Below are positions 39,501-57,500 of a DNA stretch of 62,048 nucleotides, piece by piece. Origin of the DNA: Gemmatimonadota bacterium (GTDB taxonomy: Bacteria > Gemmatimonadota > Gemmatimonadetes > Longimicrobiales > RSA9); NCBI GenBank assembly GCA_040905425.1, contig JBBDRO010000007.1, positions 1 through 62,048 of the forward strand, read 5' to 3'. Within the stretch, counting starts at the first letter, position 1. Each line of letters opens with the position of its first letter. Made by a program: the position numbers.

Positions 39501-42500
39501 GTGGCGGGGCGGGGCAGGCCCCCGAAGCGCTCACGGATGTAGCCCTCCACCTGGTCCGCGTCGAAGTCCCCCACGGCAATGACGGCCATCAGGTCGGGCC
39601 GGTACCACGTTTCGTAGAAGCGACGCAGCGCCGCCGGTTCGAAGCCCTCGAGCGACGCCACGGTGCCGATCGGCAGCCGCTCGGCGTAGCGGGAGTCCCC
39701 GAAGATCACGGGTAGGATCTTGTCCCGCATACGGGCGGCGGCGCCCCGTCCCAGGCGCCACTCCTCCAGCACCACGCCGCGTTCCTTCTCGATCTCCTCG
39801 TCCTCGAAGGTCACGGCGGAGGCCCACTCGCCCAGGATGTCGATGCCCGTCCGGAGCGCGCTCCCCGTGTCGGTGGGTACCGTCAGCATGTAGACGGTTT
39901 CGTCGAAGGAGGTGTAGGCGTTCAGGTCGGCCCCGAAGCGCATGCCGATGGATTCCAGGTAGCCCACCAGCTCCTGCTTTTCGTAGCGCGCCGTACCGTT
40001 GAACGCCATGTGCTCGGCAAAGTGTGCCAGCCCCAGTTGGTCCTCCTCCTCGAGCACCGAGCCGGCGTTCACGGCCAGGCGCAGCTCCGCCCGGTTCTCG
40101 GGGCGCGCGTTGGACCGGATGTAGTAGCGCAGCCCGTTGTCCAGGGTGCCCACACGCACGGCACTGTCGGTGGGCAGGGGGGCGCTCATGGGCAGGTCCT
40201 GCGCGCGCACGGCGGACGTGCTCACGAGGAGCGCAAGCATGGCCATCATGAATCGGCTCGGCATGGCTTCTCCGGAGATGCGTGGGGTGTGCACGGGAGG
40301 TGAACCGCGCTCCTGGAAAAATGTACGAGCGTGGCCGTTGGGACAACGGTCGCGGCTACGACATCCTTGTGGCGGGCCGGTCCCAGGGCCTACTCTGGAG
40401 ACGGTCATCCCACCCGCAGGCCATTCCGTCACCCTCGGCACCGGAGGAGTCCATGCTCCCGTGGCTCGCAGCCGTCTGCGTCTTCACCACCCTCTCCGCC
40501 CTCTACCTGGGAGGCTTCCCCCTGCGCATCGAGGGCGGTGGCGCGCGCCAGCTCCTGGGATGGGTGCTGAGCGGGGTGCTCTTCCTGGCGGCGTGGCGCC
40601 TGATCCTGGTCGGCACATCGGCCGTGGCCGGGGAAGCGGGCGCCGTGGTGCTGGCGCTCCTGCTCAGCACCCTCCTGATGCCCGTCCTGACCTGGGCGGC
40701 GTTCCGGCCGCTGGGCGTGCGCATCAGCCGGGTGAAGGCGGGCCATTGAGCGCCGTGGAGGCGCGGGTCATCGGCGGGCTGGAACTGCGCATCGACCGCC
40801 TGCTGTGCGTGGGCTTCGAGGACTGCGTCACGGCGGCGCCCACCCTCTTCCGCATGGGGTCGGACGGCATAGCCACGTTCGTGGACGAGCCGGCGGACGT
40901 GGACGAGGCGGGGCTCGTGGCGGCGTGCCGCTCTTGCCCCGTGGACGCGCTCGAGCTGCGTGACGCCGCCGGCCACCTGCTGGCGCCATGAGCACGTCGG
41001 AGGGTCCGCGCCGCCTGCGTGGCTACCACGACGTGGCGCACGACACCGGCTCGGGGGTCCTGGAGCAGGTCGTGGCGCAGCGGGAGCGTCTGCGGCGCCG
41101 GCTGGCGGACGTGGGCTGCCTGGTGGCGGTGGCGAGCGGCAAGGGCGGCGTGGGCAAGAGCGCCGTGAGCGCCAATCTGGCCGCCCTGCTGGCGGACATG
41201 GGCCACGCCACGGGCGCCGTGGACGCGGACCTGAACGGCCCGTCGCTCGGGCGCATGCTGGGCGCCGCGGGGGTCACGCTGCGCGTGGACGGGGACGGTG
41301 TGCACCCGGCCGTGGGCAACGCCGGTGCGCGGGTGGTGTCCATGGACTTCCTGCAGGAGGGTGACGCCCCCCTGCGCTGGCGCGGCCCCGGGGGGGACGA
41401 CTTCATGTGGCGCGGCGTGGCCGAGACCGGCACGCTCAGGGAATTCCTGGCCGACGTGGCGTGGGGGACGCTGGATCAACTGCTGGTGGACGTGCCGCCC
41501 GGCACCGATCGCATCCAGCGGCTCCTGGAGCTGGTGCCGCGCCCCCATCTGACCCTGCTGGTGACCACCCCGTCCGAGGCGGCCCGGCAGGTGGTGGCGC
41601 GCTCGGCGCGGCTGCTCCGGGAGGCGGGGGTGCCCCGGGTGGGACTGGTGGTCAACATGGCCTCCTTCCACCCCGCGGGAGAGGCGCCCCGCCCGCTCTT
41701 CGCGGCGGACGCCGCCACGCGGCTGGCGGCGGACACGGGGCTCGAGGTCTGGGCCGAGATCCCCTTCGACCCCGAACTGGCCGCGCTCACGGATGCCGGT
41801 GTGGCGTACGCGCTGGCCCGGCCGGAGGCGCCGGCGGCGCGAGCGCTCCACGCGCTGGCGGTGCGGGTGGCCGCCCTGGAGGACGCATGAAGTTCCTCTG
41901 CCTGCCGTGCGACGAGGTGATGACCTTTGCCGAGCGCCAGCTCCCGGGGGACGGCACCCTGTCGGCGGTCTTCGCGTGTCCCGGCTGCGGGCGCGAGATG
42001 GCCATGCTCGCCAACCCGATGGAGACCCAGCTGGTGAGCAGCATGGGCGTGCAGATCGGTGGCCGGGGGGTGCCCGAGCAGCCGCTCGAGGGCACGCGCC
42101 GCGGCATGGCGGGGGGGCGTCCCGACGCCTTCGAGGAAGTGGCCGAGCCGTCCGCCGCGGCGCCCGAAGTGTCCGCCATGGCGAGCCCACCGGGCGCGGC
42201 CGGCGCCGCGCCGAGCTGGAGTCCCGAGGCCGTGGAGCGGCTGCAGCGCGTGCCGTCCTTCGTGCGCGGCATGGTCAAGCGCATCTACGCGGACTACTGC
42301 CGCGAGCGCGCCATCCCCACCATCACCCCCGAGGTCATGGACCGGGCGCGCACCGATCTGGGGCTGGAGGGGATGTGAGCGGGGCGTGGACGGAGGCGCG
42401 GCAACAAACTGCGCCGCGGACCGGCCCGCGCGACCGCGCCGCGCCCGGCGCAACCACTCCCGACGCTCTGGTCCGCGCGCGCGCCCTCTCCTTCCGCTAC

Positions 42501-54500: not shown

Positions 54501-57500
54501 GGCAGCCCGGATGACTTCACGGCCCGCAACCGGTTCAACGTGCCGGTAGGCACGCCGGTGCACGTGACGCTGCGGGCGGAGGACGTGATCCACTCCTTCT
54601 TCCTGCCGGAGCTGCGCTTCAAGCAGGACGTGGTGCCGGGCATGGAGATTCCCGCCTGGTTCGAGGTGACCACGGCCGGGGAGTACGTGGTGGGCTGCGC
54701 GGAACTCTGCGGCCTGGGCCACTACCGGATGATGGGCACCATGACCGCGCTGGACGCGGCGGACTGGGAGGCCTGGTACACGGCGGAGAGTGTAGCGGCC
54801 GCGCAGGCGGCCGGGACGCTGAACGTGGCATCGGTCGACAATGAAGGGAGCGTGCGATGAGCGTCGATGCCCAGGCGCAGGAGGCCCACGCGGGGGCGGG
54901 GGCGGGGCACCACGAGGAGATCCCCTGGCTGCGGCGCTATGTGTTCTCCTCGGATCACAAGGTCATCGGGATCCAGTTCCTCTTCATGAGCCTGTTCTTT
55001 CTGGTCGTGGGTGGACTGCTGGCCATGGCCATGCGCTGGCAGATCGCGTGGCCCTCCAGCCAGGAGATGCCGCTGCCGGGTGGGGGCATGCTGCCGGACG
55101 TCATGGTGACGGACGGCATCATGCTGCCCGAGTTCTACAACGCGCTGGTCACCATGCACGGCACCATCATGGTCTTCTTTGCCATCATGCCGCTGCTCGT
55201 GGCCGTGTGGGCCAACTACCTCATCCCGCTGCAGATCGGGGCCGAGGACATGGCGTTCCCGCGCCTCAACATGGCCTCCTTCTGGCTGGCCGCGCCGGCG
55301 GGCATCCTGATGCTGGCCAGCTTCTGGGTGGTGGGCGGTGCCGCCAACGCGGGGTGGACGGCCTACGCGCCGCTCAGCGTCAGTGAGGTCTACAGCGGGG
55401 TCAAGCTAGGGCAGCAGCTCTGGTGCCTGAGCCTCATCATCCTGGGCTTCTCCTCGCTCATGGGGGCGGTGAACTACATCACCACGGTGATCAACATGCG
55501 GGCGCCGGGCCTCACCTGGTTCCGCCTGCCGCTTTCGGTGTGGGGCCTCACCGTCACGTCGGTGCTGGTCCTGCTGGCCGTGCCCGTGCTGGCCGGTGGC
55601 CTCATCATGATGTTCTTCGATATCACCATCGGCACCAGCTTCTTCCAGCCGGAGGGCGGGGGCCAGCCACTGCTCTGGCAGCACCTGTTCTGGTTCTTCG
55701 GCCATCCCGAGGTCTACATCCTGATCCTGCCGGCCATGGGATTCGTCTCGGACGTCATCGCCAACGGCGCCCGCAAACCAGTCTTCGGCTACCACGCCAT
55801 GGTCTGGGCCATCGTGGCCATCGGCTTCATCGGCTGGGTGGTGTGGGGCCACCACATGTTCATGAGCGGGATGACGCCCGTGCTGGGCGGCTTCTTCATG
55901 GTAAGCACGCTCATCATCGCGGTGCCTTCCGCCATCAAGACCTTCAACTGGCTGGGCACCCTGTGGGGCGGCAACATCCGCTTTCACACGCCCATGTTGT
56001 GGGCACTGGGCTTCGTCTCCCTCTTCGTCATCGGCGGGTTGTCGGGGATCTTCCTGGCCGCGGCGCCGGTGGATATTCCTCTGCACGACACCTATTTCGT
56101 GGTGGCGCACATTCACTACGTGCTGGTGGGCGGCAGCCTCTTCGGCATCTTCAGCGCCATCACCTTCTGGTTCCCGAAGATGTTCGGGCGCATGATGAAC
56201 GAGGGGCTGGGCAAGCTGCACTTCGCGCTCACATTCATCTTCTTCAACGCCACCTTCTTCCCCATGCACATGCTGGGGAGCGGCGGCATGATGCGGCGCC
56301 TCTACGACCCCACCCAGTATCCCCATCTGCAGCCGCAACAGGACACCAACGTCTTCATCACGGTGTGCGCGCTGCTGCTCTTTGCCAGCCAGTTGATCCT
56401 GGTGGTGAACTTTTTCTGGAGCCTCTTCCGCGGGAAGCGGGCGCCGGAGAATCCGTGGCAGGCCAACTCCCTGGAGTGGAGCGCCCCCTCGCCGCCGCCG
56501 CATGGCAACTGGGGAGGTCGTCTGCCGGCGGTGCATCGCGGTCCGTACGAGTACAGCCACCCGGAGCGGGAGAGCGACTACTGGTTGCAGACCGATCCGA
56601 CGGGCGCCGCCCCGGCGCCCGCTCCCACCACCAGCGGAGGGTGAGGCCATGAGCAACACCACTGCGGCGGCGCTGGAGCGTCCGACCACGGGCCCCGGAT
56701 CGGGCTTCGGCGTCTACAACATGAAGCTGGGCATGTGGGTCTTCCTCCTCTCGGAGGTGATGTTCTTCACCGCCCTGATCGGCGCCTACATCATTCTGCG
56801 CTTCACCAATCCCGGGCATTTCGCCGAGCCGGGCGTGGTGCTGAACGTGCCGCTCACGGCGGCCAACACGTTCATCCTCATCTGCAGCTCCGTCACCATG
56901 GTGAAGGCGTTCGCCGAGATCGAGGCGGGCAACCAGCGTGGTCTGCGTATGTACCTGGCCGCTACCGCCCTGCTGGGGATCCTCTTCCTGGGCGTGCAGG
57001 CGTACGAGTACTCCAAGCTGGTGCACGAGGGCTTCGTTCCGGCGGCGGAATTCTATGCGGCGCTGGGCCGGGACGGAGCGGGGGCGGTGGAGGGCGGCCC
57101 GCTCTACGGCGCCACCTTCTACACCATGACCGGCTTCCACGGGGCGCATGTGACCATCGGTGTGCTCTGCCTCCTGTTCACCACGGTCATGGCGTTCCGG
57201 GGCCGCTACACGGCCGCCAACCACGGCGGTGTGGAGATCATGGGGCTGTACTGGCACTTCGTGGACCTGGTCTGGATCATCCTGTTCACCATCGTCTACC
57301 TCATCTAGGGGCAGCCATGGAGTCCGTGAATCTGACGGCCGACGCCGGGCACAAGGGGCCCAGCTACTTCCTGGTGTTCATCATCCTGGGCGTGCTCACG
57401 TTGGTGGAGGTGGCCGTGGCCTTCATCGCGGCTCTCCCGGACACGCTCCTCATCCTGATCCTGCTCGGGTTGGCGGTGTGGAAGGCGCTGCTGGTAGCGC

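Follow-up and report, generated by a model that had tools for sequence, protein, structure and literature searches.

An AhbD-like radical SAM/SPASM-PCP_red gene module travels with a CydB-less cytochrome bd-like oxidase in Gemmatimonadota and other bacterial phyla

The stretch of Gemmatimonadota DNA analysed here (62,048 nucleotides; hereafter, the window) encodes a set of respiratory proteins directly downstream of a radical SAM enzyme related to haem-tailoring enzymes, which raises the question of what the upstream genes do and which of the downstream haem proteins they serve. A preliminary description proposed that the upstream half probably makes or inserts a modified tetrapyrrole for the oxidases encoded downstream. 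As a whole, that proposal is partly supported: the upstream half does encode a radical SAM module of the tetrapyrrole type that is linked to the respiratory genes, and, as the same description had stated, no paper describing the link between the radical SAM-PCP_red enzyme and the bd-like gene was found in the literature searched. On balance, we lean towards the explanation that the bd-like (OR-N type) haem protein complex has a cytoplasmic maturation module of its own, encoded by the genes in front of it. The bd-like family is already known; its tie to an AhbD-like radical SAM/SPASM-PCP_red enzyme did not appear in the literature searched.

Layout and composition of the gene block

The block extends from 40453 to 57610 and comprises 17 genes, all on the + strand and most of them overlapping, whose content, translational coupling and family placement can be read directly from the DNA. 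The genes named in the preliminary description were recovered at their place and on that strand, with their domains reproduced by Pfam and NCBIfam; the start at 40453 was retained, whereas a subunit IV gene moves the end of the block to 57610. The membership of the block also changes at its first gene (40453..40749), an open reading frame with high GC3 that encodes a 98-aa hydrophobic membrane protein without Pfam or NCBIfam matches and with a tblastn relative in locus L013 only. It is followed by a small single-cluster ferredoxin of uncertain start codon (40767..40991; Fer4_15 36.8 bits, Fer4_13 35.1) and by a P-loop ATPase of the Mrp/NBP35 (NUBPL) type (40988..41890; PF10609 189.9 bits; MrpORP 176 bits, below the cut-off of 450). 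The latter had been called an Mrp-like Fe-S carrier; the family assignment holds, but the CxxC pair that provides the Fe-S ligands, present in 18 of 22 orthologues, is missing from the window protein, an observation that speaks against a dedicated module.

Four PCP_red matches exist in the genome, all of them inside the block. One belongs to a 163-aa protein with a Cys4 ribbon (41887..42378; PCP_red 49.7 bits), whose C5, C31 and C34 never vary among 23 orthologues and whose C8 rarely does. Beyond an ABC transporter ATPase (42375..43358; ABC_tran 78.7 bits; CcmA 100.9 bits, below its cut-off of 131.6) and an ABC-2 permease (43355..44110; ABC2_membrane 41.6 bits), a 735-aa protein combines tandem Usp domains with two PCP_red domains (44573..46780; Usp 120.6, PCP_red 48.5 bits), the second of which is weak (45782-45865) and has a Cys-Pro 18 residues ahead of it. 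The remaining PCP_red domain is fused to the 452-aa AhbD-like radical SAM/SPASM enzyme (46752..48110; Radical_SAM 91.6, SPASM 30.2, PCP_red 59.4 bits), whose stop codon overlaps the start of the bd-like gene by 4 nt.

In NCBIfam, the radical SAM enzyme scores 279.1 bits against AhbD (TIGR04545) and 274.8 against NirJ2 (TIGR04055), confirming earlier values; both lie under the cut-offs of 500, and none of the ten fused enzymes scored reaches an NCBIfam cut-off. The enzyme aligns full length to the two models (AhbD positions 1-339, NirJ2 1-325), and its CxxxCxxC motif and SPASM auxiliary-cluster cysteines are invariant. The solved folds nearest to its structural model (pLDDT 82.6) are those of PqqE, SkfB and SuiB, and also CteB and anSME, in a comparison where no AhbD or NirJ structure was among the comparable solved structures. 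In a rough NJ tree, the 35 PCP_red-fused enzymes all fall into one clade of 40 tips. The same genome additionally encodes a TIGR04053 paralogue.

The bd-like subunit (48107..49939; 610 aa from a GTG start; PF01654, Cyt_bd_oxida_I, 65.6 bits) matches 9r2g_A over residues 55-298 (E 4.9e-12), in agreement with the CydA match noted before, and its top ten Foldseek hits are CydA chains without exception. It has about 13-14 long helices, shares 41-50% identity with copies from Nitrospira, Nitrospina, Brocadia and Poribacteria, and keeps H67, H177, H235, H387, H536, M309, M396 and M521 invariant across 22 sequences. It is an OR-N family member of the Nitrospira NIDE0901/TO_1 type. The preliminary description named it only as a bd-like protein without CydB; the OR-N family is already catalogued, with about 14 helices in OR-N1/N2 proteins (Murali, Gennis and Hemp preprint).

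Three cytochromes c come next: a dihaem protein (49936..50727; Cytochrome_CBB3, Cytochrom_C; CxxCH at residues 60 and 188), a monohaem protein (50774..51571; Cytochrome_CBB3 38.6 bits; CxxCH at residue 164) and a dihaem protein fused to an EB_dh domain of the periplasmic haem b type (51613..53163; Cytochrom_C 72.8, EB_dh 60.4 bits; CxxCH at 36 and 154; DMSO_red_II_gam in NCBIfam 86.2 bits). The neighbouring "fn3" protein (53163..54092; fn3_3 32.7 bits) does contain that domain in a CarboxypepD_reg/fn3_3 beta-sandwich, but it is also cupredoxin-like, with a type-1 copper ligand set (H163, C200, H203, M206) that 90% or more of 22 orthologues retain. The block closes with CoxB (subunit II, 54132..54860; TIGR02866 153.6 bits versus a cut-off of 147.7), which has the CuA motif and lacks the CxxCH of a haem c; CoxA, subunit I of an A-family haem-copper oxidase (54857..56644; COX1 503.3 bits; TIGR02891 657.9, below the cut-off of 670.75); CoxC (subunit III, 56649..57308; COX3 83.8 bits); and a subunit IV of the caa3/CyoD type (57317..57610; COX4_pro 52.3 bits; TIGR02229 37.1, just under the NCBIfam cut-off of 37.25).

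Conservation and co-occurrence across genomes

By tblastn, the order Usp-PCP_red, radical SAM enzyme, bd-like subunit is found in 10/10 fetched Gemmatimonadota loci, and all eight that are long enough continue through the three cytochromes c and the "fn3" protein to CoxB-A-C-D. The conserved gene order reported previously is thereby reproduced for the core; gene-for-gene conservation does not extend to the facultative ABC pair, which recurs, besides the window, in 3/10 related loci (L017, L018, L019). The ferredoxin is present in nine of the ten, at variable positions within the module. Outside the phylum, the bd-like gene and the three cytochrome c genes, including the EB_dh fusion, adjoin the module in another gene order in 11 of 54 loci, labelled Acidobacteriota, Bacteroidota, Rhodothermales, Anammoxibacter, Nitrospirae and Betaproteobacteria.

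Across 301 Gemmatimonadota genomes, which are related to each other and hence not independent, 86 encode the radical SAM-PCP_red enzyme, and the identical 86 have the bd-like gene. In 85 of these, the two genes share contig and strand, their matches being separated by -88 to 308 bp, and in the remaining one a contig end divides them; the other 215 genomes have neither gene, save for one contig-end fragment of the enzyme. These counts take in unpublished genomes (G182 among the carriers; G097 and G157 among the ChdC-positive non-carriers considered below). Since the two genes are physically linked in this phylum, their joint gain and loss would be expected. In 151 Nitrospirota, the enzyme and the bd-like gene are mostly unlinked, often 50 kb to more than 1 Mb apart, and the bd-like gene is found in 43 of 47 carriers, with three more probable and one without, versus just 2-3 of 104 non-carriers. 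An alphaproteobacterial order (151 genomes) gives 7/9 carriers versus 0/142 non-carriers. Where the enzyme was not adjacent to it, an OR-N-like CydA was present elsewhere in 13/15 genomes tested, versus none of five controls whose AhbD-like enzyme is unfused. Exceptions, in genomes that may be incomplete, are four carriers where the bd-like gene was not found (G309, G314, G337, G584) and two genomes with the bd-like gene and no enzyme (G402, and G338, where the scoring covered 11 of 16 candidates). Enzyme and oxidase co-occur in three clades, and the module travels with the bd-like oxidase in many bacterial phyla.

Possible functions of the module

The ferredoxin, the Mrp-type ATPase, the Cys4-PCP_red and tandem-Usp-PCP_red proteins and the AhbD-like enzyme probably prepare or deliver the haem cofactor of the bd-like oxidase; in the scheme that follows, we infer what the enzyme acts on and how, what PCP_red contributes and which complex is served. 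Coproheme or protohaem would be the iron tetrapyrrole on which the radical SAM enzyme acts, through propionate-directed radical chemistry as in its nearest relatives AhbD and NirJ2 and with electrons taken from the ferredoxin. The three proteins that bear PCP_red may hold or hand over the tetrapyrrole, and the product would be inserted into the membrane CydA-like subunit. This subunit would in turn work with the three cytochromes c (five haem c, one EB_dh) and the blue-copper protein, with an ordinary aa3 oxidase alongside.

Physical linkage alone could give the perfect co-occurrence in Gemmatimonadota if the genes were neighbours by descent that move as one block with no functional link. This reading, already disfavoured, is extremely improbable, as the association is kept in Nitrospirota, where the genes are unlinked, despite shuffled gene order, and in the alphaproteobacterial order, where both genes are rare. 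The preliminary description looked for the client among the downstream oxidases in general, and we consider it very unlikely that this client is the aa3 haem-copper oxidase or the set of c-type cytochromes, with the bd-like gene as a bystander. It is true that cox genes come next in all eight long-enough Gemmatimonadota loci and adjoin the module in eight others (L022, L027, L048, L056, L060, L065, L071, L072), three of which (L022, L027, L072) have no bd-like gene in the locus. Nevertheless, in six non-Gemmatimonadota loci (L033, L038, L043, L055, L069, L089) the bd-like block accompanies the module without any cox gene; the bd-like gene lies ~20 kb from the enzyme in the L072 genome and ~33 kb in another Poribacteria genome (L025); a second CoxBAC set of the window genome, on contig C47, has no module; and the module is missing from the 215 Gemmatimonadota genomes mentioned above, the oxidases of which were outside the survey. 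What stays with the module throughout is the bd-like (OR-N) subunit and its cytochromes c, which makes this complex, and not the aa3 oxidase, the likely client.

A possible, albeit doubtful, alternative is that the enzyme is an O2-independent coproheme decarboxylase that supplies haem b to the whole cell when ChdC cannot work, its place in the operon reflecting co-regulation only. AhbD, one of its two top NCBIfam matches together with NirJ2, is a haem b synthase whose product is ordinary haem b. A HemY-type oxidase gene adjoins the enzyme in six loci (L047, L051, L052, L054, L057, L058), directly downstream in five and upstream in one, and a ferrochelatase gene does so in L054. Moreover, no other full-length AhbD-like gene is present beside the fused enzyme in G301 or in the Nitrospira, Nitrospina and Poribacteria genomes (G301-G304), ChdC being absent from G301 and G305. 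These family matches, neighbours and sole status fit ordinary haem synthesis and speak against a dedicated module; in view of the matches and neighbours, the modified tetrapyrrole previously proposed as the product is a hypothesis only. In the same direction, ChdC, the marker of the coproporphyrin pathway, is found in 79/86 Gemmatimonadota carriers, the window genome included, versus 55/215 non-carriers, and, according to a review, AhbD stands in for ChdC under anaerobic conditions in some organisms of the coproporphyrin pathway that have no other AHB enzymes (PMC13564367). The window genome yielded no AhbA/B-type proteins, so its coproheme would come from that pathway. On the other hand, those 55 ChdC-bearing genomes lack the enzyme, whereas none of the 86 bd-like genomes does; it would be unneeded in 8 of 16 carriers, which have HemF and/or an above-cut-off HemN; Brocadia has a near-threshold AhbD (498 bits) as well; and just 9/151 genomes of the alphaproteobacterial order have the enzyme, seven with the bd-like gene. 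The enzyme is found alongside ChdC, HemF/HemN or a near-threshold AhbD, and so follows the oxidase and not the haem b pathway. AhbD is not known to need any of the conserved partner proteins, which also counts against the decarboxylase. Finally, the enzyme might be a protein or peptide maturase that introduces a cross-link or another modification into the bd-like subunit or a cytochrome, with no action on a tetrapyrrole. The complete auxiliary-cluster cysteines of its SPASM domain and the nearest solved folds given above, none from AhbD or NirJ, would suit such a role, and the co-occurrence data are equally compatible with it. We nonetheless judge it very unlikely: mycofactocin (134.6 bits) and PqqE (111 bits) models score far below those of tetrapyrrole enzymes (279, 275, 189 and 163 bits), PCP_red is known from a tetrapyrrole enzyme, some loci have haem-pathway neighbours, and no small precursor-peptide gene was noticed in passing, outside any dedicated search.

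Comparison with known systems

A maturation module for the bd-like complex would have a parallel in the HemW-type haem chaperones, radical SAM-fold proteins that reportedly hand haem to membrane respiratory enzymes. Compared by description only, the idea is the same, although HemW is said to be HemN-like and not AhbD/SPASM-like. With AhbD and NirJ2, the window enzyme shares the CxxxCxxC motif, the SPASM cysteines, the full-length alignment and, probably, a radical attack on a haem propionate. It differs in scoring about half of the curated cut-offs, in its added C-terminal PCP_red domain and the separate clade of fused enzymes in the rough tree, in the accompanying Usp-PCP_red, Cys4-PCP_red and Mrp-type proteins, and in occurring alongside ChdC or AhbD in many genomes.

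In dark protochlorophyllide reductase, the tetrapyrrole-binding subunit BchB has PCP_red at its C-terminus. The domain here is clearly homologous: three block proteins exceed its Pfam cut-off, and the profile of the Cys4-PCP_red family matches BchB/ChlB C-termini (2XDQ_B, E 4.9e-11; 2YNM_D) as well as the stand-alone 2KRU_A and 2L09_A. In contrast, the genome has no sign of the reductase, its four PCP_red matches all lying in the block, and the domain is joined to a radical SAM enzyme, Usp domains and a Cys4 ribbon.

The bd-like subunit resembles the OR-N family (NIDE0901-like proteins; TO_1 of Ca. Manganitrophus) in its CydA fold, its ~14 helices and the lack of a CydB gene in the block. For TO_1, the presumed donors are cytochromes c together with a periplasmic domain of the haem b type (PMC9040806), and the window block has both. 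Unlike in the OR-N literature, which in the portions consulted names no radical SAM or haem-tailoring partner, the bd-like gene here stands next to one, and, in a further difference from OR-N systems, cupredoxin and aa3 oxidase genes belong to its operon as well.

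The bd-like oxidase gene and the block around it

All genes of the block run co-directionally on the + strand from 40453 to 57610, and an M16 peptidase gene on the opposite (-) strand (37457-40441) forms the upstream border. The preliminary description recognised this co-directional arrangement but closed it at 57320, which is too early since the gene for subunit IV (57317-57610) still belongs to it; it also began the block with a ferredoxin, whereas the first ORF encodes a 98-aa membrane protein without a family. Each of the domains it named was confirmed with Pfam and NCBIfam. 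Overlaps of 4 nt join ferredoxin to Mrp, Mrp to PCP_red, PCP_red to ABC, ABC to its permease, the radical SAM gene to the bd-like gene, the bd-like gene to cytochrome c, and CoxB to CoxA. The sole sizeable gap, at 44110-44573, contains the region's single promoter-like match (44216-44245), a number equal to that expected (1.0), and the scan for promoters and terminators returned nothing above chance. The ABC pair was considered as a haem exporter and rejected, as the CcmA score (100.9 bits) lies below its cut-off of 131.6 and the pair is missing in seven of ten related Gemmatimonadota loci. Behind the oxidase genes lies a 341-aa multi-helix membrane protein (57908-58933) without a Pfam or NCBIfam family, relatives of which (30-45% identity) occur at the margins of the block in the fetched loci L016, L019 and L020. 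Elsewhere in the window, a Bat-type 'aerotolerance' operon (7087-15997) encodes a DUF4159 protein, a MoxR AAA ATPase, a DUF58 protein, a BatA/VWA protein and a giant DUF4175 protein, and a second DUF4159 gene is found at 218-1174.

The bd-like subunit (48107-49939, + strand) belongs to the CydA family (PF01654, 65.6 bits against a cut-off of 26.2). Its first 300 residues align with solved CydA (9R2G_A, E 4.9e-12; 5DOQ_A, E 1.5e-10), and with its structural model (pLDDT 78.9) ranks 1-10 of a Foldseek search are occupied by CydA chains only (E 3.8e-8 to 1.8e-5). In the E. coli numbering, the relevant CydA residues are His19, Glu107 and His186, with Glu99 as the first proton-channel glutamate. 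In the window protein, H67 and E154 correspond to His21 and Glu108 of 5DOQ_A and H235 to a conserved histidine of 9R2G_A; the three occupy haem or channel positions of CydA and are invariant in 22 homologues. The counterpart of Glu99 is absent, a family-invariant Tyr147 replacing this first channel glutamate where 5DOQ_A has Glu101. The alignments with solved CydA stop at residue 298, and nothing alignable was found beyond it when the Q-loop and the second haem b558 ligand were sought. The protein has about 13-14 long helices, and no CydB gene was found in the block with Pfam; the canonical cydA of this genome (G000) lies on contig C34.

Compared with ten copies from five genomes, the bd-like protein is 33-50% identical over 513-590 aligned residues. 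The Nitrospira, Nitrospina, Brocadia and Poribacteria copies share 41-50% (Nitrospira 46-47%, Nitrospina 42%), except for a second Nitrospina paralogue at 33%, and the alignment has 76 invariant columns, including five histidines and three methionines. The gene is followed by three cytochromes c and a cupredoxin, an operon context of the OR-N type. As far as the preprint of Murali, Gennis and Hemp describes it, the OR-N family has no quinol site, OR-N1 and OR-N2 have 14 helices, OR-N2 often stands alone, and the operons provide alternative donors. The bd-like subunit thus matches an already known kind of protein, as a member of this family. The proposal that the block supplies the missing quinol:cytochrome c link of G000 was discarded, as this genome already has three genes of the NrfD family and, on C113, one for a cytochrome b (179 bits).

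In the downstream part, CoxB exceeds its cut-off (153.6 against 147.7 bits) and has a CuA motif and no CxxCH, COX1 and COX3 score 503 and 83.8 bits, and CoxA, at 657.9 bits, falls slightly below its equivalog cut-off of 670.75; together they have the sequence features of a predicted A-family haem-copper oxidase of the aa3 type. A second CoxB-CoxA-CoxC set, with a CoxA 47% identical, is located at 23617-26997 of contig C47, with no PCP_red module beside it. In the protein described previously by its fn3 domain (53163-54092), that match stands, and the protein is better read as a blue-copper carrier: H163, C200, H203 and M206, a type-1 copper ligand set (His/Cys-x2-His-x2-Met), are each retained by 90% or more of 22 orthologues, and the gene is always a neighbour of coxB/coxA or of the bd-like block. 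Pfam gave no cupredoxin match at E 0.01, and a sequence search of the PDB returned no hit. From this ligand set and constant position, the protein probably carries electrons between the bd-like block and CoxB/CoxA.

The radical SAM enzyme and its PCP_red partners

The radical SAM/SPASM enzyme fused to PCP_red, hereafter the fused enzyme, scores 91.6 bits for Radical_SAM and 30.2 bits for SPASM. In 15 fused enzymes the cysteines of the CxxxCxxC motif (C29, C33 and C36) are invariant, and so are the auxiliary-cluster cysteines C266, C284, C321, C324, C330, C333 and C351. The enzyme of this block aligns over the full length of AhbD (TIGR04545, 279.1 bits) and NirJ2 (274.8 bits), both far below the cut-off of 500, and reaches 188.6 bits for NirJ (cut-off 515); its scores for peptide maturase families are much lower than those for AhbD and NirJ2. 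None of nine other fused enzymes passes a curated model, eight being listed at 266-333 bits for AhbD and one falling below the listing threshold. The structural model (pLDDT 82.6) resembles PqqE, SkfB, SuiB and anSME, the PDB holding no AhbD or NirJ structure for comparison. In a representative search of 1.84 billion proteins, 43 of the best 150 cluster representatives have between one and five PCP_red domains. In a rough Kimura-distance neighbour-joining tree of 132 cores, computed without support values, all 35 fused enzymes fall inside one clade of 40 tips.

Two other radical SAM genes were observed in this genome. One, at 23519-24865 of contig C18 (9523-10866 of locus L011), is a second haem-type radical SAM/SPASM gene that adjoins feoB and passes TIGR04053 (447 bits against a cut-off of 395). 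The other, a 220-aa ORF at 34190-34852, matches only positions 1-139 of the AhbD model (72 bits) and may be truncated or one part of a split gene; it is followed by a 158-aa ORF without a family. A membrane protein of about 170 aa with a weak CopD-family match, a hint of haem handling, adjoins the gene of the fused enzyme in two phyla, namely in Poribacteria (L022, L024-L028, L030, L031) and Nitrospira (L073, L075, L080, L082, L083, L085, L087, L088, L090).

PCP_red (PF08369) is present in three block proteins (49.7, 48.5 and 59.4 bits, cut-off 32.5), and all four matches of the genome fall inside the block. A PDB profile search made its homology to the C-termini of BchB/ChlB and to the stand-alone domains 2KRU and 2L09 clear. 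The Usp-PCP_red protein contains three Cys-Pro pairs, at 46295-46300 (Cys575-Pro576), 46649 and 46685; a large HEAT-repeat protein is encoded ahead of its gene in L047, L051, L054 and L058. In the window protein and in ten out of ten Gemmatimonadota orthologues, one Cys-Pro lies 18-19 residues ahead of the second PCP_red, and a Cys-Pro-Phe occupies a similar place in the small PCP_red protein of other phyla. These pairs may be haem-binding motifs and give a small hint of haem handling. As a general haem-binding signature before PCP_red the Cys-Pro was rejected, only 25 of 102 domains having one: it is a hint and no rule.

The Mrp-like protein (40988-41890) had been taken for an Fe-S carrier ATPase. 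It is indeed a P-loop NTPase of the NUBPL type (PF10609, 189.9 bits) with a conserved GKGGVGKS, and it passes neither the MrpORP (176.4 bits, cut-off 450) nor the ApbC (117.6 bits, cut-off 348) equivalog model. The CxxC pair of Mrp, NBP35 and ApbC bridges an Fe-S cluster. Eighteen of 22 orthologues keep this pair, while the window protein has a single cysteine and no CxxC, a loss also found in L013, L015 and L023. Though retained, the protein can, by its sequence, hardly carry a bridging Fe-S cluster.

Co-occurrence of enzyme and oxidase, and what the enzyme may make

The co-occurrence figures that follow are counts and not probabilities, for the genomes are related rather than independent and many are MAGs. 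Among 301 Gemmatimonadota genomes, the fused enzyme (taken at E below 1e-150) occurs in 86, the unpublished G182 included, and the bd-like gene in the identical 86; in 85 of the pairs both genes share contig and strand, their matches being -88 to 308 bp apart, and the end of a contig separates the remaining pair. One more genome of the phylum has a contig-end fragment of the enzyme only. A locus scan of the genome collection returned 80 loci. The order Usp-PCP_red, fused enzyme, bd-like gene is kept in all ten Gemmatimonadota loci, and all eight that are long enough extend through CoxD. In other phyla, where 54 loci have a fused or end-cut enzyme, bd-like, cytc1, cytc2 and cytc3-EB_dh genes stand beside it in 11, in differing gene orders, and a cox gene is absent from six of these. 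Fifteen genomes whose enzyme locus showed no bd-like gene were searched whole, and 13 of them have an OR-N-like CydA elsewhere, its matches confined to the first ~240 model positions and its open frame 599-850 aa long; some of these genes lie 11-33 kb from the enzyme. In five control genomes whose AhbD-like enzyme is unfused, none was found. In 151 Nitrospirota genomes there are 47 carriers (45 with the enzyme, two with fragments), of which 43 have a bd-like match, three probably have one, their second CydA match being outside the matches listed, and one has none, as against 2-3 of 104 non-carriers; in complete genomes of this phylum a distance of 50 kb to more than 1 Mb often separates the two. 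In one alphaproteobacterial order (151 genomes) the enzyme is found in nine and the bd-like gene in seven, all within the nine.

The main rival to a role tied to the oxidase is that the fused enzyme is a plain oxygen-independent haem synthase. According to passages of PMC13564367, AhbD replaces ChdC in some organisms of the coproporphyrin pathway, and such a replacement would agree with several features of the carriers. ChdC is encoded in G000 (on C83), where a search for AhbA/B-type proteins found none. ChdC is enriched in Gemmatimonadota carriers (79 of 86, compared with 55 of the 215 non-carriers, a count that includes the unpublished G097 and G157), and in many genomes of one family its gene follows that of the radical SAM enzyme on the same strand at a distance of ~11 kb, immediately after the cox genes (G062 contig C54, G046 contig C4 and G073 contig C73 are examples). 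In five loci labelled Alphaproteobacteria (L047, L051, L054, L057 and L058, with a ferrochelatase also present in L054), the gene immediately after that of the fused enzyme encodes a HemY-type amine oxidase; in L052, labelled Deltaproteobacteria, such a gene lies upstream. Moreover, in four genomes tested, no other full-length AhbD-like gene accompanies the fused enzyme. On the other hand, the same ChdC survey leaves 55 ChdC-bearing Gemmatimonadota without the fused enzyme. HemF and/or HemN score above cut-off in eight of 16 carrier genomes, that of L054 among them with both, so these have no need of a coproheme decarboxylase. Brocadia has a 498-bit AhbD besides its fused enzyme, and G000 has its TIGR04053-family paralogue next to feoB.

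From the ChdC, HemF/HemN, AhbD and TIGR04053 evidence, it follows that the distribution of the enzyme tracks the oxidase rather than the kind of haem b pathway. These findings and the alphaproteobacterial counts weaken the view that a general haem synthase explains everything and leave it as the less likely reading, and a dedicated maturation role of the module for the bd-like oxidase is the most likely reading, one to which we give somewhat better than an even chance. Within such a dedicated role, the substrate, the reaction, the function of PCP_red and the contributions of the Usp protein, the Cys4 protein and the ATPase are what we infer. A joint reading, possible though tentative, has the fused enzyme making an iron tetrapyrrole other than haem b as the dedicated active-site cofactor of the OR-N oxidases. 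The tetrapyrrole would be altered, for example at its remaining propionates, by radical chemistry like that of AhbD and NirJ, and the Usp, Cys4 and Mrp-type PCP_red partners would form a delivery line to the membrane subunit.

Significance and comparison with known systems

In the literature searched, no paper combined PCP_red and radical SAM, joined bd-like, radical SAM and heme, or linked AhbD with anammox, and the papers mentioning PF08369 were unrelated as judged by title. The main text of the OR-N preprint mentions no radical SAM, nirJ or Gemmatimonad, and an operon drawing in its supplements or journal version might show accessory genes; within the parts of this literature available, no measurement of OR-N cofactors, activity or assembly was found. 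The passages on bd-like proteins in papers on Nitrospinota and Nitrospirales treat them as putative, uncharacterised oxidases. OR-N proteins are presumed to act as terminal oxygen reductases in Nitrospira, Nitrospina and further bacteria of high abundance, and a helper enzyme that accompanies them in different phyla offers a concrete experimental handle. If the dedicated role is true, the fused enzyme would represent a new branch of haem-type radical SAM enzymes, and PCP_red would have its first role outside chlorophyll synthesis. If the enzyme were instead a plain coproheme decarboxylase, the finding would keep its value, for the coproporphyrin pathway of Gram-negative phyla would gain an oxygen-independent final step.

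With AhbD, the fused enzyme has in common the CxxxCxxC motif, the SPASM cysteines and the end-to-end alignment; it differs in its score below the cut-off and in its genomic setting, PF17805, the family of AhbA/B partners of the siroheme pathway and also of those of the nirDLGH type, having no match in G000 (96.7% complete). The distance from NirJ and NirJ2 is of the same nature, with scores under the cut-off and partners of the nirDLGH type not found in this genome. The bd-like block, in turn, shares with OR-N a CydA homologue of ~14 helices, the lack of CydB and alternative electron donors in the operon, and it also matches the 'TO_1' complex, which has a periplasmic cytochrome b according to the part of PMC9040806 that describes it.
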